Source: Clostridiales bacterium (GTDB lineage: Bacteria > Bacillota > Clostridia > Peptostreptococcales > Acidaminobacteraceae). From it: a stretch of DNA of 64,000 nt. A program made the translations under genes and the position numbers. The notes below the pieces were generated by a model. It was given only the letters and a program-made list of their open reading frames with translations, was not told where the DNA came from and did no database searches. Of this stretch, positions 505-42,568 are shown piece by piece. Where the stretch lies: contig JAFGAC010000002.1 in the NCBI GenBank assembly GCA_016933835.1, positions 26,809 to 90,808 of the forward strand, in the 5' to 3' direction. Each line of letters starts with the position of its first letter. Within the stretch, counting starts at the first letter, position 1.

Positions 505-1845
505 ATGAGCAATACAAATGAAATATGGAGTAATACATTAAAAATCATTTCAAATGAAATAACAGGTGTCAGTTTCAATACCTGGATAAAAACACTTGAA
601 CCCATTGCCATCGACAATGATATATTTGTTTTAAAAACACCCAATATTTTTAATAAAGATATTCTTGAATCTCGCTATTCTGATTTAATAATAAATTCAC
701 TTTATCAATCCACAAGCAGATCATATGAATTGAAGTTTATTACAGAACAAAATTCTGATTTTTATTCAGAAAAACCTAAAAAACAAAGAGATAAACAAAA
801 TTACAGTGATTTTGACTCTTTTCCACAACTAAATCCTAAGTATGTCTTTGAAGAATTTGTCATTGGCAACAGCAACCGTTTTGCTCATGCAGCTTCTTTA
901 GCAGTTGCAGAATCTCCAGCAAAAGCTTATAATCCTCTATTCATTTATGGAGGTGTTGGATTGGGCAAGACTCATTTGATGCATGCTATTGGACATTACA
1001 TTTTAAATCAAAATCCAAATTCAAAAGTCTTATATGTTTCTTCTGAAAATTTTACTAATGAATTGATCAATTCAATCAAAGATGATAAAAATACAGAATT
1101 CAGAAATAAATTTAGAAATTTGGATGTTTTGCTGGTGGATGATATTCAATTCATTGCTGGAAAAGAAAGAACACAGGAAGAATTTTTCCATACATTCAAT
1201 GCCTTGCATCAGGCAAACAAACAAATTATCATTTCAAGCGATAGACCACCAAAAGAAATCAAGACACTTGAAGATCGTCTCAGATCACGTTTTGAATGGG
1301 GTCTGATTACAGATATTCAGCCACCTGACTTCGAAACCAGAATTGCTATCTTAAGAAAAAAAGCTGAACTTGAAGATATGAATATTCCAAATGATGTCTT
1401 TGATTATATTGCCAGAAAAATAAAATCGAACATTAGAGAGTTGGAAGGCGCACTTATACGTGTCATAGCTTTTTCTTCATTGACCAATAACAATATTAAT
1501 GTCGATTTAGCTGAAGAAGCACTTAAAGAAATATTAAGTTCCTCAGGTCCAATTAAAGTTACACCAAATTTAATTAAAGAAATCATAGCGAATACATATA
1601 ATATAACAATAGAAGATCTAACATCTCCAAAAAGAATGAGAAATATCTCTTATCCACGACAAATTGCCATGTATCTATGTAGAGAACTCACTAATTTATC
1701 TCTTCCTAAGATTGGACAAGAATTTGGAGGAAGGGATCATACTACTGTAATGCATGCACATGACAAGATATTAAATGAAATAAAAGTAAGTGATGAATTC
1801 AAATCTACAATTAAAACACTTACAAATAAGATAAAAGGTGAATAA
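505..1845 (+). CDS. dnaA: chromosomal replication initiator DnaA
   Basis: 446 aa. Walker [14 protein letters not shown]+ core, C-terminal DNA-binding helix region ([11 protein letters not shown]). RBS GGGAGG before the ATG. Confidence 0.97.
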
Positions 1846-1879
1846 TCAACAGATTTCTGTTATTTAAATATTTATTGAA

Positions 1880-2030
1880 AAACTTGTTGATAACTCTTAT
1901 TTTAAAGCTTTTTAATCAACAAGTTTACTAACAACATAAATCAGTGATTATCAATTATCTTAAAGTCTTATCAACATATCAACAGGCCCTACTACTACTA
2001 CTAGTTTATATATATATATAATATCTAAAC
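1880..2030. other. oriC part 2: DnaA boxes, GC cluster, DnaA-trio-like repeats, AT-rich unwinding element
   Basis: TGTTGATAA 1885-1893, TTATCAACA 1968-1976, GGCCC 1985-1989, TACTACTACTACTAG 1990-2004 (TAG x4 on the minus strand), then a TA-rich tract 2005-2025. Confidence 0.7.
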
Positions 2031-2047
2031 AAATACAGGAGGTTTAT

Positions 2048-3148
2048 ATGAAATTTTCATGTTTTCAAAGCGACTTAATAAATGGTATCAATATTGTACA
2101 AAAGGCAGTATCAACAAGAACTAATTTAGAAATATTGAAAGGTATATTGATTACTACAGAACAAAACAAAATAAAATTGACAGGTAATGATCTCAATTTA
2201 GCAATTGAAGTTTTAATTGAAGCTCAAATAGAAATTGAAGGTTCTATTGTTCTAGATTCCAGATTGTTTGGAGATATTATAAGAAAACTTCCTGATGCAA
2301 CAATTGATTTCAATATGAACAACAATTTTGTAGAAATAAATTGTCTTCATTCAAATTTTAAATTAATTCCTTTTAAAGCAGAGGATTATCCAAAACTGCC
2401 AGTAATAGAAAACAGTCAAACTTTAAAAATAGATCAAAATATTTTCAAAAATATGATTAAACAAACTATCTTTGCAGTTTCTCAAGATGAAACAAGACCA
2501 ATATTGACAGGATCTTTATTTGAAATATTAGATAATAAAGCGACATTAGTTTCTATTGATGGCTATAGACTTGCTTTAAAAACAATTAGCATTGAAAATG
2601 TAAAAAACTCTAAAACTGTTATTCCTGGTAAAACACTTAATGAATTGATGAAAATATTGAGCAACAGTAAAGAAAATGAATTAAGAATTGATATTACTGA
2701 TAAATACATAGCCTTTGAAATTGATAATATAAAAATAATTTCAAAAATACTCGAAGGTGAATTCATAAAATACAATCAAATAATTCCAAATGATTTTAAG
2801 ACAAAAGTGATTGTGAATACGACTGATTTCTATCAATCAATAGAAAGAGCATCATTGATGGCAAGAGAATCAAAATCAGCTACTATTAAATTATCATTGG
2901 AAAGTCAATATATAGAAATATCATCTAACAGTGAAATAGGAAGTGTAAAAGACAAGGTCAATATAAATATTGAAGGAGATAAATTTGAAATTGGCTTTAA
3001 TCCTAGATATTTAACTGAAGCTCTCAGGGTAATTGAGTCAGAAGAAGTCATATTGGAATTATCATCAAGTTTAAGTCCATGCATATTAAAGCCGATTGAT
3101 GACAATGAATATATTTATTTGGTTTTACCGGTAAGAATGTCTAATTAA
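2048..3148 (+). CDS. dnaN: DNA polymerase III beta sliding clamp
   Basis: 366 aa, three-domain clamp length, conserved position after dnaA, RBS AGGAGG. Confidence 0.95.
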   Translation: MKFSCFQSDLINGINIVQKAVSTRTNLEILKGILITTEQNKIKLTGNDLNLAIEVLIEAQIEIEGSIVLDSRLFGDIIRKLPDATIDFNMNNNFVEINCLHSNFKLIPFKAEDYPKLPVIENSQTLKIDQNIFKNMIKQTIFAVSQDETRPILTGSLFEILDNKATLVSIDGYRLALKTISIENVKNSKTVIPGKTLNELMKILSNSKENELRIDITDKYIAFEIDNIKIISKILEGEFIKYNQIIPNDFKTKVIVNTTDFYQSIERASLMARESKSATIKLSLESQYIEISSNSEIGSVKDKVNINIEGDKFEIGFNPRYLTEALRVIESEEVILELSSSLSPCILKPIDDNEYIYLVLPVRMSN

Positions 3149-3155
3149 AAAATTA

Positions 3156-3184
3156 ATCCTCTTTTAAGTAAGAGGATTTTTTTA
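3156..3184 (+). terminator. intrinsic terminator after dnaN
   Basis: ATCCTCT (3156-3162) / AGAGGAT (3171-3177) stem followed by a T-run. Confidence 0.7.
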
Positions 3185-3197
3185 GGAGGGAAAAAAT

Positions 3198-3428
3198 TTG
3201 AAAGATATTAAAATAAGTGGAGAATTTATAAAATTGGATCAGTTTCTTAAATATGTAGGAATAGCTTCTACTGGTGGACATGCAAAATATTTGATTAGTG
3301 AAGGATTTATTGATTTAAATGGACACAAGATAACTGAAAGAGGTAAAAAAATAAGAATTGGTGATGTTGTAAGAATACACATTGAAGAAGAGAGTGTTTA
3401 TAAAACTTTTAAAATTGTTTCCCAATAG
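3198..3428 (+). CDS. yaaA: S4-domain RNA-binding protein (YaaA-like)
   Basis: 76 aa, TTG start after AGGAGGG. Conserved dnaN-yaaA-recF synteny. S4-like IKLDQFLK...GHKITERGKKIRIGD. Confidence 0.85.
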   Translation: MKDIKISGEFIKLDQFLKYVGIASTGGHAKYLISEGFIDLNGHKITERGKKIRIGDVVRIHIEEESVYKTFKIVSQ

Positions 3429-3444
3429 TGGAGTGTGAATTAAA

Positions 3445-6473
<3,029 letters not shown>

Positions 6474-6482
6474 GTGAAATAG

Positions 6483-8906
6483 ATGAGTGATAAAATTATT
6501 GAAGTAAATATAAATGATGAAATGAAAAAATCTTATATTGATTATGCGATGAGTGTTATAGTTTCGAGAGCACTTCCTGATGTAAGAGATGGATTAAAAC
6601 CTGTCCATCGTAGAATTCTTTATTCGATGAAAGAACAAAGTTTTACACATGATAAAGCACATAAAAAATCAGCTCGTATTGTCGGCGATGTTTTAGGTAA
6701 GTATCATCCACATGGCGATCAATCTGTTTACAACGCCATGGTAAGGATGGCACAGGAATTTTCTACTCGATATCTTTTAATTGATGGACATGGAAACTTT
6801 GGTTCTATTGATGGTGACAGCGCTGCTGCCATGCGTTATACAGAAGCCAGAATGACTAAATTATCATCTGAATTATTAAGGGATATTGAAAAAGATACTG
6901 TAGAATTTGGACCCAATTTTGATGACTCACTAAAAGAACCCTTGGTTCTTCCAAGCAGGTACCCTAACTTACTTGTGAATGGATCAAATGGTATTGCTGT
7001 CGGAATGGCGACCAGCATACCTCCACATAATTTAAATGAAATAATTGATGCAATTGTCTATATGATTGATAATGACGATGCTGATGTTGAAGATTTGATA
7101 GAAATTGTTACGGGACCTGACTTTCCAACAGGCGCATTTATTTTGGGAGTTGAAAATGTAAGACAAGGTTATAGAACCGGTAGAGGTAAAGCAGTCATTA
7201 GATCTAAAGTAAATATAGAAGAAATGAAAAACAATAAACATCAAATCATTGTAACAGAAATTCCATATCAAATTAATAAATCCAGATTATTGGAAAATAT
7301 TGCCGATTTAGTTAGAAATAAAAAATTGGACGGCATTACAGATTTAAGAGATGAGAGTAATAGAGAAGGAATCAGAGTTGTAATAGAACTCAGAAGAGAT
7401 GTCAATCCAAATATATTTTTAAATAAATTATATAAAAATACACAGCTCCAGACGTCTTTTTCTATGAATAGCATTGCCCTTGTTAATGGTGAACCTAAAC
7501 TTCTAAACTTATATGAAATGCTCAATCATTATTTGGATCATCAGAAGGAAATTGAAACAAGAAAAACTATATTTGATTTGAATAAAGCCAATGAAAGAGC
7601 CCATATACTGGAAGGTTATCGCATTGCACTTGATAACATCGATCGTATGATTGAAGTCATTAGAGGATCAGAGGATGTAAATATTGCAAAAGATGCTTTG
7701 ATGGATGAATTCAATTTATCTGAAATTCAAGCAAAAGCAATTTTGGAAATGAGATTGCAGCGTTTGACTGGCCTTGAGAGAGACAAAGTTGAAAATGAAT
7801 ATAGTGAATTACAAGAAAAAATTATTTGGTATAAAAAAGTGCTGGCAGATGACAGTATTTTAATGGCGATCATTAAAGCAGATTTGATTGAAATAAAAAA
7901 TAAATTTGGTGACGAAAGACGGACTGAAATTATTCTATCTGATGAAGATTTTGAAATTGAAGACCTCATAGAAGAAAAAGAAGTCACTATTACTATGACA
8001 CAAAGAGGTTATATTAAAAGAGTGCCACAAGATACTTATCAAGTTCAAAATAGAGGTGGACGAGGAAAAACAGGACTATCCACTCGTGAAGAAGATGTTG
8101 TTGTCAATATATTCAACACATCGACGCATGCGGACATACTTTACTTTACAAATCTAGGCAGAGTGTATAAAAAGAAAGCCTACAAGATTCCTGAGAGCAC
8201 AAGAACAGCAAGAGGGATAGCAATAGTCAATCTGATTCAATTGAACCCTGGAGAAGTAGTTACGGCTGTCAAATCAGTCAGGGAATTCGATGATCGTTTT
8301 ATAGTATTGGTGACTAAAAAAGGTATTATTAAAAGACTGCACCTTAAAGATTTGGATTCTTCAAGGAAATCAGGCATATTTGCTATCAATTTTAGAGAGA
8401 ATGAAGATGAATTAGTAGCTGTTCGTATCACTGAAGGTGATGATGATATTTTAATTGCAACTAAGAACGGAAAAGCTATTCGATTTGGAGAAAATCAAGT
8501 GAGAGTCATGGGCAGAACTGCTTATGGAGTCATGGGAATCAACTTAGAAGAAGATGATGAAATCATTTCAATGGTTTTAGTTGACGATGACAATTCTACA
8601 TTGCTTTCAGTCACAGAGAATGGATTTGGAAAAAGAACCTTGCTTAGCGAGTACCGGTCTCAAATGAGAGGCGGAAAAGGAATATTGACTTACAATATCA
8701 ATGAGAAAACAGGTAAGTTGATCGATGTGCTGATTGTAAATGAAGAAGATGAAATTTTATTGATCAATACTGACAGCAATGTCATCAGACTTCGTGCAAA
8801 TGAAATATCAACGATAGGAAGAAATACTTCTGGTATTATATTGATGAAAACAGAGGAAGATTCAAAAGTAGTCTCTTTAGCTAAAACAATTGATATCATT
8901 GAATAG
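6483..8906 (+). CDS. gyrA: DNA gyrase subunit A
   Basis: 807 aa. Active-site region [20 protein letters not shown]-terminal beta-pinwheel repeats. Confidence 0.97.
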
Positions 8907-17310: not shown

Positions 17311-19299
17311 ATGTCTTTTGAAAAAGATGATATAATGCTTGAAATATACATACATGAGACAGAAACGCTTATTGACCAGCTAGAGGCTGAAATCATCAAA
17401 ACTGAAACAAATCAAGAAATTCATTCGAGTATAGACGAAATCTTTAGGGTCATGCATACCATAAAAGGAAATTCAATGATGATGGATTTTGAATACATTG
17501 GTTCTCTTGCGCATGAAATTGAAGATTTATTTGATTTTTTGAGAAATAAAGATTTTAGATTGGATGACTATTCTCAAATTATCGATTTGATCTTGGCTTC
17601 TATTGATTATTTCAAAGTCGAAATAGACAAAATTCAAAATAATGATTCAAACTTATTGCCTGCTGAAGATTTGAAAAAAAGAATACGAAATTATTTGAAT
17701 TCTCTTAAGGGTGTTGTAGACAACAGAAAAGTAGTGAGTGAAAAAAGTGAAAAAGAGCTTATGGATATTGTAGCTGACAAACTTTACTATGTTCAAAGCA
17801 CTTTTACAGATGAGTGTCAGATGGAGGGTGTTAGAGCATTCGCCATCGCTTTTGAACTTGAACAAGTTGTAGAAAATCTTATCTATTATCCAATGAATCT
17901 TGAAGATCCCAATGCGAGGGACTTGATAAGAAAAGATGGATTTAGAATGTTGATCAATGGGATTCAGGAGAAGGAATTTTTTGAGGAATATCTGAGTAAA
18001 AATTTTTACTTGAAGGAATTCAATGTACAACCGATTACTTTGGATGAATTTCAAAAAATCTATTTGAATGATGGCATAATGATCAAAAATGAAAAAAAAT
18101 CTAAAAAAAATACTGAATCAAAAGAAAAAATGCCAGCTGTAAACAAGCAAAAATTCATCAGTGTTAAAGTAGATTACTTGGATACATTACTTAATCTTGT
18201 TGGAGAAATTGTTATTTCAGAGTCAATGGTAAGTAGAAATAAAGACTTGGAAGGATTGCAATTGGATAATTTTAGCAAGTCAGTGCATCAAATGAGAAAA
18301 ATTGTTAAAGATTTGCAAGATGTAGTTATGGAAATCCGTATGGTGCCGTTGACAATGACTTTTCAAAAAATGAATCGTATCGTCAGAGATGTAGCCAGTA
18401 AAACTGACAAAAAAGTAGACTTTGAACTTTTAGGTGAAGATACACAGGTCGATAAAAATATCATTGAAAATATTTCAGATCCTTTGATGCATTTGATTAG
18501 AAATGCAGTAGACCATGGGATTGAATCAACTGAAGAAAGACTTGATAATGGAAAATCGGCTGAAGGAAAAGTTGTTTTAAGCGCTAAAAAATCTGGAGGA
18601 GATATTTATATTTCTGTAGAAGATGATGGCAAAGGGCTTGATGAGAAGAAAATCTATCTTAAAGCTTTTGAAAAAGGTTTACTGACTGAGCCTTATGAAG
18701 AATATACAAAAAAAGATATTCTTGATCAAATTTTTACTGCAGGCTTTTCTACTAAAGAGCAAGTGACGGGTTTTTCTGGTAGAGGCGTTGGAATGGATGT
18801 AGTAAAAACTGATATTGCAAAAATAGGCGGCAGCATTACCATTCAAACTGAAGTTGGCAAAGGTTCAATTTTTAAAATAAAAATTCCAATGACCTTGGCG
18901 ATTATTGATGGAATGATTGTAAGAATTGCTGATCAAAAATTTATTTTACCGATTAATGCCATTCAAGAGACTTTTAAACCAGAAAAGAAAAATATCACAA
19001 AAGACGGTTTAGAAGAACTGATGATTTTGAGAGGTGAAGCAATCAACATCATTGATTTACCAAAACTTTATGGCATAAAAGCAGATTCCGAAGAAAAAGA
19101 AGACGGTATCATAGTTGTCATTGAAGCTGAGGGAAATAAGACATGTGTTTTTGTTGATGAAATCATTGGCGAGCATCAAGTGGTCGTTAAAAATTTCAAT
19201 TCATATATACAAAAAGTTAAAGGATTGACAGGAACGGCATTGCTTGGTAATGGAGAAATAAGTTTGATATTGGATCCATTGGATTTACTAAATGAATAG
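17311..19299 (+). CDS. cheA: chemotaxis histidine kinase CheA
   Basis: HPt site HTIKGNS, dimerisation and HATPase domains (DHGIE, GRGVGMDVV), C-terminal CheW-like domain. Start placed at ATG 17311 after AAGGGG (ORF track GTG at 17302). Confidence 0.95.
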   Translation: MSFEKDDIMLEIYIHETETLIDQLEAEIIKTETNQEIHSSIDEIFRVMHTIKGNSMMMDFEYIGSLAHEIEDLFDFLRNKDFRLDDYSQIIDLILASIDYFKVEIDKIQNNDSNLLPAEDLKKRIRNYLNSLKGVVDNRKVVSEKSEKELMDIVADKLYYVQSTFTDECQMEGVRAFAIAFELEQVVENLIYYPMNLEDPNARDLIRKDGFRMLINGIQEKEFFEEYLSKNFYLKEFNVQPITLDEFQKIYLNDGIMIKNEKKSKKNTESKEKMPAVNKQKFISVKVDYLDTLLNLVGEIVISESMVSRNKDLEGLQLDNFSKSVHQMRKIVKDLQDVVMEIRMVPLTMTFQKMNRIVRDVASKTDKKVDFELLGEDTQVDKNIIENISDPLMHLIRNAVDHGIESTEERLDNGKSAEGKVVLSAKKSGGDIYISVEDDGKGLDEKKIYLKAFEKGLLTEPYEEYTKKDILDQIFTAGFSTKEQVTGFSGRGVGMDVVKTDIAKIGGSITIQTEVGKGSIFKIKIPMTLAIIDGMIVRIADQKFILPINAIQETFKPEKKNITKDGLEELMILRGEAINIIDLPKLYGIKADSEEKEDGIIVVIEAEGNKTCVFVDEIIGEHQVVVKNFNSYIQKVKGLTGTALLGNGEISLILDPLDLLNE

Positions 19300-19313
19300 G
19301 TGGTGAGATTAGA

Positions 19314-19778
19314 ATGAGCACTCAAGAGAATGATTATTTAAAAAACAAATATTTGGAAGTTCTTTTAGAAAAAACAGTTTATGGAATCGATGTTACAAGT
19401 GTTGTTGAAATATTGAGGTATAGAGAAATCAACCATGTGCATGGGCAGCCGGATTATATTGAAGGTTCTATTGTTTTCAGAGAAAAAGCAGTCCCTGTTT
19501 TCAATCTTAGAAAAAGATTTGAATTGGAAGCAAAAGAAGCAGATGAAAACACTTGTATTATTGCATTGAATGTCAAAGGTAAGAGTGTTGGATTTATTGT
19601 TGACAATGTTGCAAACATTGTTGAGATTCAACCGGAGGAAATTACGGAAATTGAAGAATTCAACGTCAGTATCAGCAACCAGTTCATACTGGGAATAGCC
19701 ACAAAAAATAGACAAGTTGTATTGCTGGATTCTCAAAAGATATTGAGTAATAGAGAACTGAAAAATATTGAATTATAA
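19314..19778 (+). CDS. cheW: chemotaxis coupling protein CheW
   Basis: 154 aa single CheW domain, located next to cheA. Confidence 0.9.
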   Translation: MSTQENDYLKNKYLEVLLEKTVYGIDVTSVVEILRYREINHVHGQPDYIEGSIVFREKAVPVFNLRKRFELEAKEADENTCIIALNVKGKSVGFIVDNVANIVEIQPEEITEIEEFNVSISNQFILGIATKNRQVVLLDSQKILSNRELKNIEL

Positions 19779-39014: not shown

Positions 39015-39431
39015 ATGAGTATCAATACCAATCTTTTTACGGATACAAGCTTGACGGTGCTAAAAAAGGCACTGGATGCTTCAACAATGAGAAATGAGAC
39101 GATCAGCAACAACATTGCCAATGTGAACACAAAGGACTACAAGGCAAAACGGGTTGTTTTTGAAGATGAACTTAAAAAAGCTCTGAGTTCAGGCTCTGAA
39201 AAAGGATTGGCGACAACACATAAAGGACACATCGGTGCCAGTAATGAAGTCAATCGCATTCAGCCGCAAATTGTCGAAGATGCTGCATCTACAGTTAAAA
39301 GTGATGGGAACAATGTTGACATCGACGTGGAAATGGTAGAACTCGCTAAGAACCAGTTGATTTATAATACTTTAGTTCAGCAGACATCCAAAAAGTACTC
39401 AAATCTTGGTTATGTTATAAATGGAGGTTGA
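39015..39431 (+). CDS. flgB: flagellar basal-body rod protein FlgB
   Basis: 138 aa. [18 protein letters not shown] rod motif. Confidence 0.93.
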
Positions 39432-39436
39432 TCATC

Positions 39437-39856
39437 ATGAAATTATTTAGTTCTTTGAATATCAGTGCGTCGGGACTTTCTGCCGAACAGGTCAGAATGG
39501 ATACAATTTCATCAAACATAGCGAATGTGAATACCACAAGAACAGAAGATGGTGGTCCCTATATAAGAAAAGTGGCAGTTTTCAAAGAAAAATTGGATAA
39601 AGCCATGACGTCAGCGGGAAGTAGGCTTGCAGGCGTTGAAGTGTCTGAAATAGTGGATGACACGACACCACTCAAAAAAGTCTATGATCCCAATCATCCG
39701 GATGCGGATGAAGAAGGCTATGTGCTGATGCCAAATGTGGATATTTTGAATGAAATGGCAGACCTTATCGTAGCCACAAGATCATATGAAGCCAACGTCA
39801 CAGCGCTAAATGCCAGCAAAAGCATGTATTTGAAGGCTTTGGAAATTGGAAGATAA
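39437..39856 (+). CDS. flgC: flagellar basal-body rod protein FlgC
   Basis: [22 protein letters not shown] and [10 protein letters not shown] motifs. Start placed at ATG 39437 after GGAGG (ORF track TTG at 39428). Confidence 0.94.
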
Positions 39857-39859
39857 TTA

Positions 39860-40163
39860 TGACCTATCCCTGCATCTTTGATGCAGCGGAAGGTGTTGGC
39901 TACGTTACCAAATCATAGATTTGGACTTCGCAACATTTGACCTACTAAATTATTTAGTAAGTTACGTCATGAGTCGTGCCGTTAACTGAATCAAAGATTC
40001 AGACTTTACGACATCTGACCTACCAAGTTATTTAGTAAATTACGTCATGAGTCGTGCCGTTAGCTGAATCAAAGATTCAGACTTTACGACATCTGACCTA
40101 CCAACGGACCATAGGTTCGGGTTAGGTCATGAAGACTGCGAAATGACCTATCCCTGCATCTTT
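39860..40163 (+). repeat. hairpin-repeat array A: three 78-nt units, a 50-nt hairpin unit and a 20-nt truncated unit, each starting TGACCTAYC
   Basis: Unit starts at 39860, 39938, 40016, 40094 and 40144. Units 2 and 3 are near-identical tandem copies. Each 78-nt unit folds into two hairpins. Detail is in the findings. Confidence 0.9.
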
Positions 40164-40276
40164 AAAACATTTGAGGATTTTGTCGTTGTCACTGCACATT
40201 TTAAACTAAAAATATACATAAAATAAAAGATTACTATTAGGGAATAAAAGAAGAATTCTTAATAAAGGAGAAATAA

Positions 40277-40303
40277 TTGAACTTACATGATATGGTAGTT
40301 TGA
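40277..40303 (+). other. 8-codon leader mini-ORF with the only strong SD upstream of fliE
   Basis: AAAGGAG at 40264-40270, 6 nt, then TTG 40277. Reads TTG AAC TTA CAT GAT ATG GTA GTT TGA, in the same frame as fliE. Confidence 0.4.
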
Positions 40304-40309
40304 TTATAT

Positions 40310-40606
40310 GTGAATAATATGCAAGTGAATCCTGTATCTCAATATATGAATTTAATGAATACACAGATGGAAGAGGAATCAAGCAAGGTTGATTTTTCAG
40401 CTGTCATGAAAGATTATTTGACAGATGTCAATGATATGCAGGTTTCTTCTGATCAAAGCACAAATGACCTGATTCTTGGTGAAACAGAAAACATTCATGA
40501 TGTCATGATCAAGGCTGAAGAAGCGAAACTTGCACTGGAATTGACAGTACAGGTGAGAAATAAGGTAATAGAGGCTTATCAAGAATTGATAAGAATGCAA
40601 ATATAA
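40310..40606 (+). CDS. fliE: flagellar hook-basal body protein FliE
   Basis: 98 aa (GTG 40310) or 95 aa (ATG 40319). C-terminal AEEAKLALELTVQVRNKVIEAYQELIRMQI is typical of FliE. No SD directly upstream. Confidence 0.88.
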   Translation: MNNMQVNPVSQYMNLMNTQMEEESSKVDFSAVMKDYLTDVNDMQVSSDQSTNDLILGETENIHDVMIKAEEAKLALELTVQVRNKVIEAYQELIRMQI

Positions 40607-40609
40607 TTA

Positions 40610-40820
40610 TGACCTATCCCTGCATCTTTGATGCAGCGGAAGGTATTGGCTACGTTACCAAATCAAAGATTTGGCTAATGAAGCCGACACCTACCAACGA
40701 ACCATAGGTTCGGGTTAGGTCATTTCGCAGTCTCGACAACGATATCCATGATTATTTAAGAAAGATATCTGTCTACGTTGCGTTTGACCTACCAACGAAC
40801 TTTCAGTTCGGGTTAGGTCA
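40610..40820 (+). repeat. hairpin-repeat array B: a copy of unit 1 plus two copies of the TGACCTACCAACGAAC...GTTCGGGTTAGGTCA hairpin
   Basis: 40603-40674 matches 39853-39924 at 70/72, including the TAA stop codon. Hairpins at 40685-40722 and 40785-40820 match 40094-40129. Confidence 0.9.
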
Positions 40821-40825
40821 TAACT

Positions 40826-40915
40826 CCGAAAGGGTAATCCACTTGTAAGAGTGGTGCACAAAGTAACAGATCTTCAATCATTGTAAATGGCTTTGAAGAT
40901 GGCTGTACTACCGAA
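40826..40915 (+). ncRNA. candidate c-di-GMP-I (GEMM-I) riboswitch aptamer
   Basis: GGGTAATCCACTTGTAAGAGTGGTGCACAAAGTA aligns 24/34 with the V. cholerae Vc2 core GGGCAAACCAUUCGAAAGAGUGGGACGCAAAGCC (from memory). First hairpin CCACTT-GTAA-GAGTGG has a GNRA loop. Second hairpin is ACAG/ATCTTCAA...TTGAAGAT/GG/CTGT. Ends ...CTACCGAA. Confidence 0.55.
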
Positions 40916-40955
40916 GAGAAACTGGAAAACTGTGTTTCTTCGGCGCAGTTTTTTT
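40911..40955 (+). terminator. terminator-like expression platform upstream of fliF
   Basis: CCGAAGAGAAAC (40911-40922) / GTTTCTTCGG (40934-40943) stem, then CGCAG and T7 (40949-40955). An alternative AAAACTG/CAGTTTT pairing is possible. Confidence 0.5.
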
Positions 40956-40984
40956 AATGAATTTTTTTGAGAAGGAGAAACATT

Positions 40985-42568
40985 ATGTCAGAGTCAAATA
41001 AACCTGGAAATAGAGTAGTAAGAGTTTGGAATGGAATGGATAGAGGTAGAAAAGTAAGTCTAGGGGCAATATTGCTGACTTTAGTTATTGCTTTTGGTGT
41101 CTACTATATGTTTTTTGGCAGGGTGAGCTATACTGCTTTGTTTACAACTCTTGAAATGAAGGACTCTGCAAATATAGTCGCTAAACTGGATGAGATGAAA
41201 ATCAGTGACTATAAAATTGAAAATGGCGGCAGTACAATTTTGGTTTCTGATAAAGTGGTTGATCGAATTCGATTGGAGTTGGCAATGAGTGATCTTTTGC
41301 CGGATACAGGCGTCGGTTATGAAATATTTGATACAGCCAGCTTTGCAGTAACAGATGAAGATAGAAAAATAATGTATCAGAGAGCGCTTGAAGGTGAACT
41401 CGCCAGATCGATTATGAGTCTGGCTGAAGTTGACTATGCAAGGGTACATCTTGCGTTGAGCGAAGAAACACTTTTTTCTAGAGAGGCTTCTCCTGGAAAT
41501 GCAACTGTCATCATTGAACTGAATCCACTTCAAAATTTTACTACTGATCATGTGAGGGGAATAATTGCGCTTGTTTCAAGTGCGGTATCGAATATACCAC
41601 CTGAAAATGTCAGTGTTGTTGATACGAACGCCAATCTGCTGAGTGAGAATCTTTTTACAGATTCTGAATCAATGTCAGCAGGACAGGTAGCTAATGACTC
41701 TATTGCAATTCAAAGACAGTTTGAAGGTCAACTTGAAGATGAACTTCAAAGAATGTTGGAGTTGACTTTCGGAAAAGGAAAAATTCTTGTCAATGTCAAT
41801 GCTAAATTGGATTTGAATTCAGAACAGGTCAGTATCATTGAGTATAATGATACTGGTGTTATTAGGTCACAGCAGGATTACATAAGTAAAACAACAACAG
41901 GAGCTACAACGGTAGATTCCATGAGTCCTGTAGATAACAATATTGAATATTATGTTGAAAACACAGAAGAAGCAATGAATGATTCAACTGTCAGCAATTA
42001 TGAGACTACTAGAAATTATGAAGTAGGAGAGACAAGAACCAGTAGGGTCAAAGCACCGGGGGAAGTAGTCAGTCTTTCGACTTCAGTCATTTTTGACGGA
42101 ACGTTATCGGATGTTGACAAGACTTCCATAAAAAATATTGTCGTTGCAGCTATTGGGCTCGATGAAGCAAGAGGCGACATTGTCAGTGTAGAAGGCATCG
42201 TTTTTGACAAGACATATGAAGAAAATGCCATTGCGGAATTCAATGTGGCACAGGAAGAATTTTTAATAGAGCAAGACACACAAAAGAAATACATGTTCTA
42301 TGGCAGTATTGCCGGAGGCGTGATTGTACTTATATTGATTATAATTTTTATAATAAGAATCATCAGAAGTCCGAAAAAAGCGGACAACAGTTTCTATGAA
42401 GCGATGCAGCCAATTCCAATCAGTGAATTGACTGGTGAGTCACGAGGAACGCACATCAAACCTTTTGAAGAGCAGGATATGGAAAAAGGGATTAAACATT
42501 ATGCGGAAGAGAATCCTGAAAAATTAGCAGATTTGGTAAAAACCTGGATGCTGAAAGATGAGGGGTAA
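40985..42568 (+). CDS. fliF: flagellar MS-ring protein FliF
   Basis: Start at ATG 40985 after AAGGAG. N-terminal TM segment, YTALFTTLEMKDSANIVAKLDE, C-terminal TM segment and FliG-binding tail. Confidence 0.94.
   Translation: MSESNKPGNRVVRVWNGMDRGRKVSLGAILLTLVIAFGVYYMFFGRVSYTALFTTLEMKDSANIVAKLDEMKISDYKIENGGSTILVSDKVVDRIRLELAMSDLLPDTGVGYEIFDTASFAVTDEDRKIMYQRALEGELARSIMSLAEVDYARVHLALSEETLFSREASPGNATVIIELNPLQNFTTDHVRGIIALVSSAVSNIPPENVSVVDTNANLLSENLFTDSESMSAGQVANDSIAIQRQFEGQLEDELQRMLELTFGKGKILVNVNAKLDLNSEQVSIIEYNDTGVIRSQQDYISKTTTGATTVDSMSPVDNNIEYYVENTEEAMNDSTVSNYETTRNYEVGETRTSRVKAPGEVVSLSTSVIFDGTLSDVDKTSIKNIVVAAIGLDEARGDIVSVEGIVFDKTYEENAIAEFNVAQEEFLIEQDTQKKYMFYGSIAGGVIVLILIIIFIIRIIRSPKKADNSFYEAMQPIPISELTGESRGTHIKPFEEQDMEKGIKHYAEENPEKLADLVKTWMLKDEG

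Follow-up and report, generated by a model that had tools for sequence, protein, structure and literature searches.

Several families of intergenic stem-loop repeats have been described in bacteria, such as BOX in pneumococcus, EFAR in Enterococcus, SMAG in Stenotrophomonas, and Correia/NEMIS in Neisseria. These repeats often lie near stop codons, are co-transcribed, and can alter the stability or processing of the mRNA. The closest counterparts of the element analyzed here are the repetitive extragenic palindromes (REPs) and bacterial interspersed mosaic elements (BIMEs). We examined the flagellar operon of a Clostridiales bacterium in a stretch of 64,000 nt (contig JAFGAC010000002.1, positions 26,809–90,808; referred to as the window hereafter), in which flgC, fliE, and fliF are separated by two long spacers. 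Both spacers are probably clusters of a non-autonomous REP/BIME-like repeat family, common in Clostridia, that spreads as a mobile element. This reading is based on the gain and loss of units at the same junctions, the dispersed copies, the mosaics and arrays, the residence in dispensable spacers, the decay of copies, and the lack of an adjacent transposase. The family apparently has not been described so far and belongs with the intergenic stem-loop repeats, among which it is unusual in having a unit of two hairpins and in the conservation of its core across orders.

On the + strand, the genes are arranged in the order of flgB (39015–39431), flgC (39437–39856), fliE (40310/40319–40606), fliF (40985–42568), and fliG, which agrees with all the relatives compared. 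The initial annotation of this stretch had regarded the flgC–fliE and fliE–fliF gaps as oversized, and they measure 454 nt and approximately 378 nt, respectively. Its further observations on the repeats were reproduced: the 72-nt head shared by the two spacers (39853–39924 and 40603–40674) contains 2 mismatches; TGACCTA occurs 15 times in the 64-kb window as compared with 5.0 expected, with 10 of the 15 inside 39860–40820; a 78-nt period was detected by Tandem Repeats Finder (TRF) at 39911–40104 (2.5 copies, 90% matches); and the 36-nt terminal hairpin exists in three copies, the one at 40685 having a degenerate 5′ arm (CGACACCTACC). When folded as RNA and compared with dinucleotide shuffles, spacers 1 and 2 gave z = −5.5 and −8.2, respectively. 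The remark that the region is GC-richer than its surroundings holds against the AT-rich intergenic DNA only, and not against flgC (0.39–0.42 in the repeat region vs 0.41–0.46 in flgC).

The spread of the repeat was examined with a scan pattern taken from the sequence common to the window and a related locus, L006 (TGACCTAACCC N11–25 GGTAGGTCA); a strict 29-base hairpin pattern gave no match in the genome contigs, and the pattern was then relaxed. The core hairpin, TGACCTACC–variable stem–GGGTTAGGTCA, was found at more than 119 loci in the GTDB representative genomes. Among the matches listed are Tissierella, Tissierellaceae, Peptoniphilus, Anaerococcus, Alkaliphilus, Anaerovoracaceae, Ihubacter, Clostridium aminobutyricum, Christensenellaceae, and Oscillospiraceae, and the scan pattern also matches 33 stretches of viral/prophage contigs. 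The loci listed contain 137 exact hairpins, and a covariance model of one of the two hairpins (R1, for hairpin B, see below) gave 152 + 32 matches in the loci analyzed. The copies elsewhere that the initial annotation proposed to look for thus exist, and the family comprises hundreds of copies across many genera and several orders of Clostridia, including prophages. One more copy (L048) was found in the same metagenome-assembled genome (MAG) as the relative L004, whose flgC–fliE site is empty, and it carries the window's own module type.

A unit of approximately 80–110 nt consists of hairpin A, which is variable in sequence and conserved in the shape of its outer and inner helices, followed by hairpin B; each copy of B is preceded by a hairpin A. 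Hairpin B has a base of 7 bp (TGACCTA/TAGGTCA), above which come a T bulged out of the 3′ strand, a CC/GG step, a 5′ bulge of 2 nt, and a variable stem of 7–9 bp; T(A/T/G)A usually follows the hairpin. Hairpin A differs in sequence type among the copies, and the two types present in the window are both found again in many genera: type 1 is GTCG...CNAAATC-NNN-GATTTNG...CGAC-ATC, and type 2 is GCAGTYTCG...TTGCGTT, located 58–64 nt before B. The units are single or are repeated directly in tandem, the period being 78 nt in the window and 86, 87, 88, or 93 nt in other genera, and comparable clusters also exist in isolate genomes. The A–Bn–C build proposed initially is therefore replaced by A + B units occurring in both orientations.

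Since no part of B other than its base was specified in the scan pattern, the inner 11–25 nt provide an unbiased test of pairing. In 87 distinct B copies, 94% of the cells pair, and double compensatory changes were found at 7 of the 8 free pairs in the upper stem. The compensatory cells there number 122 as compared with 29.6 in the shuffles, none of 500 shuffles reached the observed value, and a shift of the register by 1–3 columns makes the signal collapse. Hairpin A forms both its outer and its inner helix in 18 of 18 homologous modules of differing sequence; the compensatory changes noted initially for this hairpin ("hairpin II") were confirmed and extend to other genera. Judging from the pairing kept by compensatory change, the structures of both hairpins are under selection. 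Degenerate copies (the GTTACGTCA arms at 39938 and 40016 in the window, and GTTAGGACA in L131) contain uncompensated mismatches, as expected of decaying copies. It was also found that a subfamily of the AATTCGC...GCTCATT type, approximately 28 of the 87 copies, shares a T–C/C–T 2 × 2 internal loop in the upper stem across genera (columns 24/39 and 25/38 of alignment A1); this loop may reflect conservation of a non-canonical feature and not decay.

The same junctions were compared among six related lineages, in which the FlgC identity to the window is 77–86%. The FlgC of the window itself has an identical counterpart in an NCBI "Clostridiales bacterium" MAG. An uninterrupted flgC–fliE junction, which the initial annotation had suggested looking for, was found in four of the six, with gaps of 7–22 nt (L004, 21 nt; L129, 7–22 nt; L133, 15 nt; L134, 14 nt), while L006/L007/L009 and L131/L132 have gaps of 283 and 136 nt, respectively. 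Three lineages (the window, L006, and L131) have an occupied flgC–fliE junction, and it is filled in three different ways: L131 carries a single A + B unit in the + orientation 2 nt past the stop codon, and L006 carries a mosaic in which the core hairpin is reversed. The repeat clusters are thus lineage-specific insertions into a compact flgC–fliE–riboswitch–fliF arrangement. In L006, a separate 111-nt insertion (19244–19360) exists exactly at the flgG stop codon (GAGATAA|ATGAATTT...CGGATAG|ATAATATAAGG; compare L003 10240–10252). The GATAR repeats on its two sides resemble a short duplication, and it contains a possible degenerate B-like hairpin (TGACTCA...TAGTCAT).

The riboswitch in this arrangement is a cyclic di-GMP-I (c-di-GMP-I) aptamer, the single family found in the whole window by Rfam at the gathering thresholds. 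It was overlooked by the initial annotation, as was the continuation of the repeat material to approximately 40197. In the window, the aptamer begins 3 nt past the last hairpin and 217 nt from fliE, while in five of the six related lineages, L004 and L006 among them, it is located 8–9 nt after the fliE stop codon; the riboswitch is therefore ancestral, with approximately 217 nt of repeat inserted between it and fliE. It does not belong to the repeat, which was inserted just upstream. In the minimum free energy (MFE) fold, the aptamer is a separate domain, head 2 pairs with 40814–40823, and UUAUGACCUA at 40607 pairs with UAGGUCAUAA at 40823; the second insert is thus predicted to close on itself, leaving the riboswitch free to fold. 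The terminator-like sequence following the aptamer was missed by a simple scan because its loop is 9 nt. The score of the aptamer with RF01051 (51.5 bits) is close to that with the GGC-variant model RF03167 (51.3 bits, below the RF03167 gathering score), and the riboswitch of L006 passes the GGC-variant model.

The features of the two spacers are collected in Table 1. Spacer 1 can be parsed as [B reversed, degenerate][A][B][A][B][A][B canonical], followed by reversed-unit remnants to approximately 40197, and spacer 2 as [B reversed][A][B][A][B], TAA, and the riboswitch. When the 64-kb window was scanned with R1, five significant matches were obtained, all of them on the + strand within 39930–40824 and none elsewhere. 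Head 1 sits 3 nt past the flgC stop codon (junction TAA-TTA-TGACC). We infer that 39860–39895 is a degenerate terminal hairpin B in reverse orientation, its R1 score being only 7.8 bits. The initial annotation took this first unit for a divergent copy of units 2 and 3, and this view was abandoned, since the inverted repeats I7–I14 suggest that the unit starts with an inverted B; it had seemed to align position for position because B is nearly palindromic. A 14-nt inverted repeat in the window likewise arises from two B hairpins in opposite orientation. The remnant at 40173–40197 is the reverse complement of GTGCAGTGACAACGACA in L048.

Table 1. Features of the flgC–fliE and fliE–fliF spacers in the window
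Feature	Position	Strand	Evidence
Head 1, degenerate reversed hairpin B (TGACCTATCC-CTGCATC-TTT-GATGCAG-CGGAAGGTG), inferred	39860–39895	−	12–14-nt inverted repeats I7–I14 with B 3′ arms
Hairpin A, copy 1 (GTTGGC...CCAAATC-ATA-GATTTGG...GCAAC-ATT)	39895–39937	+	outer and inner helices fold; homologous modules in at least 10 genera
Hairpin B, degenerate (3′ arm GTTACGTCA)	39938–39969	+	R1 match 39930–39973, 21.4 bits, E 8e-4
Hairpin A, copy 2 (GTCGTG...CTGAATC-AAA-GATTCAG...ACGAC-ATC)	39973–40015	+	TRF 78-nt array; fold
Hairpin B, degenerate	40016–40047	+	R1 match 40008–40051, 16.2 bits, E 0.03
Hairpin A, copy 3	40051–40093	+	TRF array; fold
Hairpin B, canonical (TGACCTACCAACGGACC-ATA-GGTTCGGGTTAGGTCA)	40094–40129	+	R1 51.4 bits, E 1e-12
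Reverse-unit remnants: AGACTGCG (reverse of A start), partial reversed B 40144–40163, reversed A fragment 40173–40197	40133–40197	−	22-nt inverted repeat I1 with 40712–40733
Head 2, degenerate reversed hairpin B	40610–40645	−	96% identical to head 1; 3 nt past fliE TAA stop
Hairpin A-type module (CCAAATC-AAA-GATTTGG core, 3′ part diverged)	40645–40684	+	sequence, repeat comparison
Hairpin B, degenerate 5′ arm	40685–40722	+	R1 match 40689–40720, 28.5 bits, E 6e-6
Hairpin A, CGCAGTCTCG...TTGCGTT type	40726–40784	+	exact GCAGTCTCG start 58 nt before B, like Tissierella-type units; same module in L048, L131
Hairpin B, canonical, then TAA	40785–40820	+	R1 57.2 bits, E 2e-14
c-di-GMP-I riboswitch aptamer	40823–40915	+	RF01051, 51.5 bits vs gathering score 35
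Terminator-like expression platform, U-tract (AAAACTGTG...CGCAGTTTTTTT)	40926–40956	+	read from sequence; homologous clear terminator in L004

In the other genomes, the copies are located in DNA that is dispensable and yet often transcribed. The neighborhoods are composed of ordinary genes and prophage structural genes; among the neighboring proteins (4–8 kb around approximately 119 loci, by clustering and Pfam) are ABC transporters, MatE, aminoacyl-tRNA synthetase, LeuA, and prophage tail/ClpP proteins. In the tRNA operons, copies are located directly 3′ of the tRNA ends (CCA-TTA-TGACC), and their presence varies between genera. In the rRNA operons, they occur between 23S and 5S (1–8 nt before 5S), after 5S, and upstream of 16S. 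Copies also lie inside the approximately 300-nt helix-45 intervening sequence of the Anaerococcus 23S rRNA, varying between species: the 23S genes concerned (L012 2513–5721, L030 500–3705, and L075 1–817) are approximately 3,206–3,209 nt long, and the A + B unit is found within the intervening sequence of L075 and L012, and not of L030. Intervening sequences of this type are usually excised by RNase III. Other copies are found just past the T-tracts of terminators. On the sense strand, TGACC follows an A in approximately 90% of the copies, and the three bases before it are mostly TTA or TAA without being invariant. In 22 of 128 copies, representing at least 5 independent sites, this TAA is the stop codon of the upstream gene; therefore, the exact start at stop codons reported initially is a general property of the B end, and not a peculiarity of the flagellar genes.

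The units would have spread through a trans-acting enzyme that recognizes the invariant asymmetric base of B and copies or moves the unit. Movement would probably occur on folded single-stranded DNA, the B end landing preferentially beside T(T/A)A, and an enzyme of the HUH type, similar to the REP-associated tyrosine transposases (RAYTs) or the IS200 transposase, would be the leading candidate. Group 1 RAYTs have been reported in Clostridia (PMC5581495). Arrays and mosaics may grow by repeated insertion next to resident copies combined with slippage or recombination. At the flagellar locus, the units are most likely co-transcribed passengers, which would add stable hairpins to the flagellar mRNA and carry no terminator; no hairpin of the repeats in the window is followed by a U-tract, so that read-through is expected. 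Neither a recurrent transposase or recombinase family nor a full-length insertion sequence with matching ends was found within 4–8 kb of the approximately 119 loci, which fits a non-autonomous element. The Pfam results for the 68 open reading frames of the window cover the top 25 families only and cannot by themselves exclude a recombinase there.

Several points weigh against the REP/BIME-like mobile element. A mobilizing enzyme for the repeat was not found in the loci searched: tblastn with approximate IS200/IS608 TnpA queries gave a single Y1 gene in approximately 0.9 Mb around the loci, which lies 5.7 kb from a hairpin, none flanking it. No clean pair of filled and empty sites between near-identical genomes was obtained from which the exact ends and any duplication of the target could be read; the 23S intervening sequence, a candidate for such a pair, was rejected, as it represents a replacement and not a clean insertion. 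Unlike REPs, the repeat has no unpaired GTAG/CGTC tag, GTAG being found only on the reverse strand within the paired base (GG-TAGGTCA), and its core of approximately 20 nt is kept across orders whereas REPs are species-specific, a contrast to which ascertainment by the scan pattern contributes in part. Unlike miniature inverted-repeat transposable elements (MITEs) of the DDE type, the unit has no terminal inverted repeats, its ends, (TTTC)GCAGTCTCG and GGGTTAGGTCA(TAA), being unrelated. Lastly, 76% of the copies are co-oriented with the genes, and A–C mismatches outnumber G–T by 18 to 6; both would fit an RNA working in one orientation. If the element works as RNA, the latter ratio weakly favors the reverse strand.

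Hairpin B might instead be the cognate site of a vertically inherited enzyme, either a domesticated HUH/RAYT-like protein or an RNase, within a REPIN-like system extending over the Clostridia and put to use by the host as well, for example as a signal for processing or insulation in tRNA and rRNA operons and in polycistronic mRNAs; we consider this possible, although doubtful. Somewhat less probable, and the main rival of the mobile element, is that the units are functional cis-acting RNAs, in which B serves as a processing or stability signal (e.g., a substrate of RNase III/Y or a barrier to 3′-exonucleases) of tRNA and rRNA operons and gene ends; in the flagellar operon, the units would then segment the polycistronic mRNA and determine the levels of flgC, fliE, and fliF relative to each other. 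Such a role would account for the strong covariation of B, the very stable folds of both spacers, the wobble asymmetry favoring the strand that is sense in these contexts, and the sites right after tRNA 3′ ends, just before 5S, and within the 23S intervening sequence. It would also account for the orientation of the copies: the B end faces the 3′ end of a gene at 72:30, the reverse strand is sense between co-directional genes at 36:9, and, after de-duplication, 74 of 97 copies follow the gene direction. However, 68 of 88 copies follow the GC skew as well, and replication and transcription are inseparable as causes of this bias because the gene direction and the GC skew are discordant at only two loci; a strand-specific insertion into single-stranded DNA explains it equally. 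Moreover, the presence of the units varies at the same junctions among close relatives, most of which are empty, and elements are also found past terminators and in prophages. In the window, 5 of the 7 B copies are in the minority orientation of the family, namely antisense, and the degenerate copies there and in L131 decay without compensation. For the same reasons, the proposal that the repeats uncouple the stoichiometry of fliE was unsupported: the junctions are mostly empty or differently filled, and the units in the window mostly have the minority orientation. There is no evidence for a special role of the repeats in flagellar regulation.

Two further explanations appear very improbable. 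One is that B is a site of the attC type, or another folded-DNA site of a tyrosine recombinase, with the A + B units as tiny cassettes without open reading frames. The direct tandem arrays, the conserved base, the extrahelical bases, and the variable terminal structure resemble attC, and the 3′ arm GTTAGGT fits the R′ consensus GTTRRRY. However, the 5′ arm is ACCTACC and not RYYYAAC, the T is bulged within the GTT triplet, and the copies are single and dispersed rather than in one array beside intI, with no integrase recurring nearby; to our knowledge, integrons are essentially unknown in this phylum. The other, equally hard to maintain, is that the palindromes are duplex-DNA sites for a regulator or nucleoid protein controlling the flagellar genes. 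This is suggested by the invariant 7-bp inverted repeat TGACCTA...TAGGTCA and by the clustering of the sites in the operon, but the spacing of the half-sites ranges from 20 to 34 nt, compensatory changes in the intervening stem are not expected of a duplex site, the sites lie in tRNA/rRNA spacers, prophages, and the 23S intervening sequence rather than in promoters, and most relatives have none in this operon. An artefact of the MAG assembly (repeats collapsed, expanded, or mis-joined) is the least credible, since the gene order is that of all the relatives, spacer 2 is reproduced base for base in an independent Logan assembly (L002 1–370 = window 40616–40984), and similar clusters occur in isolate genomes, although both short-read Logan contigs break exactly within the shared heads, which leaves the MAG assembly as the single source for the number of copies in the first array.

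Known classes of elements were also tried and rejected. As a CRISPR array, the candidate fails because the "spacers" are themselves repeated (the match to CRISPR-DR61 has E 6.6). Domain V of a group II intron or a class C intron would require an AGC triad, which is lacking, and the unit is far too small. The arrays are followed by fliE, by the riboswitch and fliF, or in L050 by a gene of 342 aa, and no toxin gene of a type III antitoxin array was recognized. ARAGORN calls no tRNA-like element. With permissive thresholds, Rfam 15 gave nothing better than E ~2–7 for the repeats, with unrelated models, and nothing for the canonical units of other genera. No paper describing the repeat was found when the literature was searched for its sequence or for REP, RAYT, and MITE in the taxa concerned, and spacer 2 had no BLAST match among annotated plasmids and phages. 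The initial statement that the repeat is not assignable to a known family is in line with these results.

Some side observations concern the surroundings and the varieties of the repeat. Between the repeats and fliE, an AT-rich stretch of approximately 120 nt (40200–40318, approximately 25% GC) has no counterpart in the relatives, and a weak promoter-like site exists at 40186–40213. No clear Shine–Dalgarno sequence precedes the homologous ATG of fliE (40319), and a weak GGTAG is located 9 nt before the alternative GTG (40310); look-ups of the fliE protein with both start codons matched no record. The window opens with dnaA, dnaN, recF, gyrB, and gyrA (505–8906; Pfam Bac_DnaA, DNA_gyraseB, and DNA_topoisoIV); therefore, its + strand runs with replication, and the flagellar/chemotaxis regulon lies approximately 30–60 kb from the replication origin. 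In prophage regions common to Peptoniphilus, Anaerococcus, and Aedoeadaptatus, two copies with identical flanks recur near the tape-measure and ClpP-protease genes (L022, L054, L056, L069, L090, and L122; L023, L031, L034, L037, L059, and L081; viral L136–L156), and in one prophage copy the TAA stop codon of a tail gene directly abuts TGACC. In L108, L112, L052, and L006 (10625–10655), extra right ends of B alone follow the elements (e.g., GGGTTAGGTCAACTTCGGGTTAGGTCATAA and GGTCATAAAGGTCATAA), and these could be footprints of abortive or repeated end-joining.

If the family is indeed undescribed, it explains why spacers are recurrently oversized and contigs broken in Tissierellia, Peptoniphilaceae, Anaerovoracaceae, and allied genomes and MAGs, and the covariance model R1 allows the elements to be annotated. 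The question is then raised of which enzyme recognizes a hairpin base that is identical across orders. The present case also cautions against reading function into enlarged operon spacers: the sole regulatory element with a curated match in these two is the c-di-GMP riboswitch before fliF, and not the repeats.

The likeness to modular hairpin repeats (REP, BIME, BOX, or MITE) seen initially was thus supported in general terms, and it can be specified as follows. In BOX, the modules are in the order A–Bn–C, as compared with the repeated A + B unit here, and Correia elements have true terminal inverted repeats with a TA duplication, while a possible TA/TAA duplication was found here only at 40606–40609 and 40821–40823 and not at the other junctions. 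We know of no sequence relationship of the repeat to BOX, EFAR, SMAG, or Correia, none of which spans several orders. With regard to the helix-45 intervening sequences of 23S rRNA, the repeat, some Anaerococcus copies of which lie inside them, is a variable passenger and is mostly found outside the rRNA genes. The palindrome-associated elements derived from IS200/IS605 (PATEs), which move by the single-stranded "peel and paste" mechanism, resemble the repeat in overall shape, namely in the hairpins at both ends, the absence of terminal inverted repeats and of an evident duplication, one end abutting a short preferred sequence, and a strand bias compatible with insertion at the replication fork; the repeat differs in that the hairpins at its ends are dissimilar, the insertion sites do not define a constant target of four or five nucleotides, and no cognate TnpA was found beside any copy. 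The REP/BIME systems differ from the repeat in the linkage to a RAYT, none being linked to it in the DNA searched, and in that BIMEs are built of alternating REPs, while here two dissimilar hairpins (A + B) are joined in direct tandem. On the other hand, an imperfect, bulged palindrome of similar size (36–44 nt for B; 35–45 nt in the known systems), the extragenic location, the joining by linking motifs to mosaics of both orientations, and the more than 180 R1 matches in intergenic DNA (summed over many genomes) are features in common, as are the sites mostly at gene 3′ ends or between co-directional genes, the lack of an adjacent transposase, and the co-transcribed hairpins.

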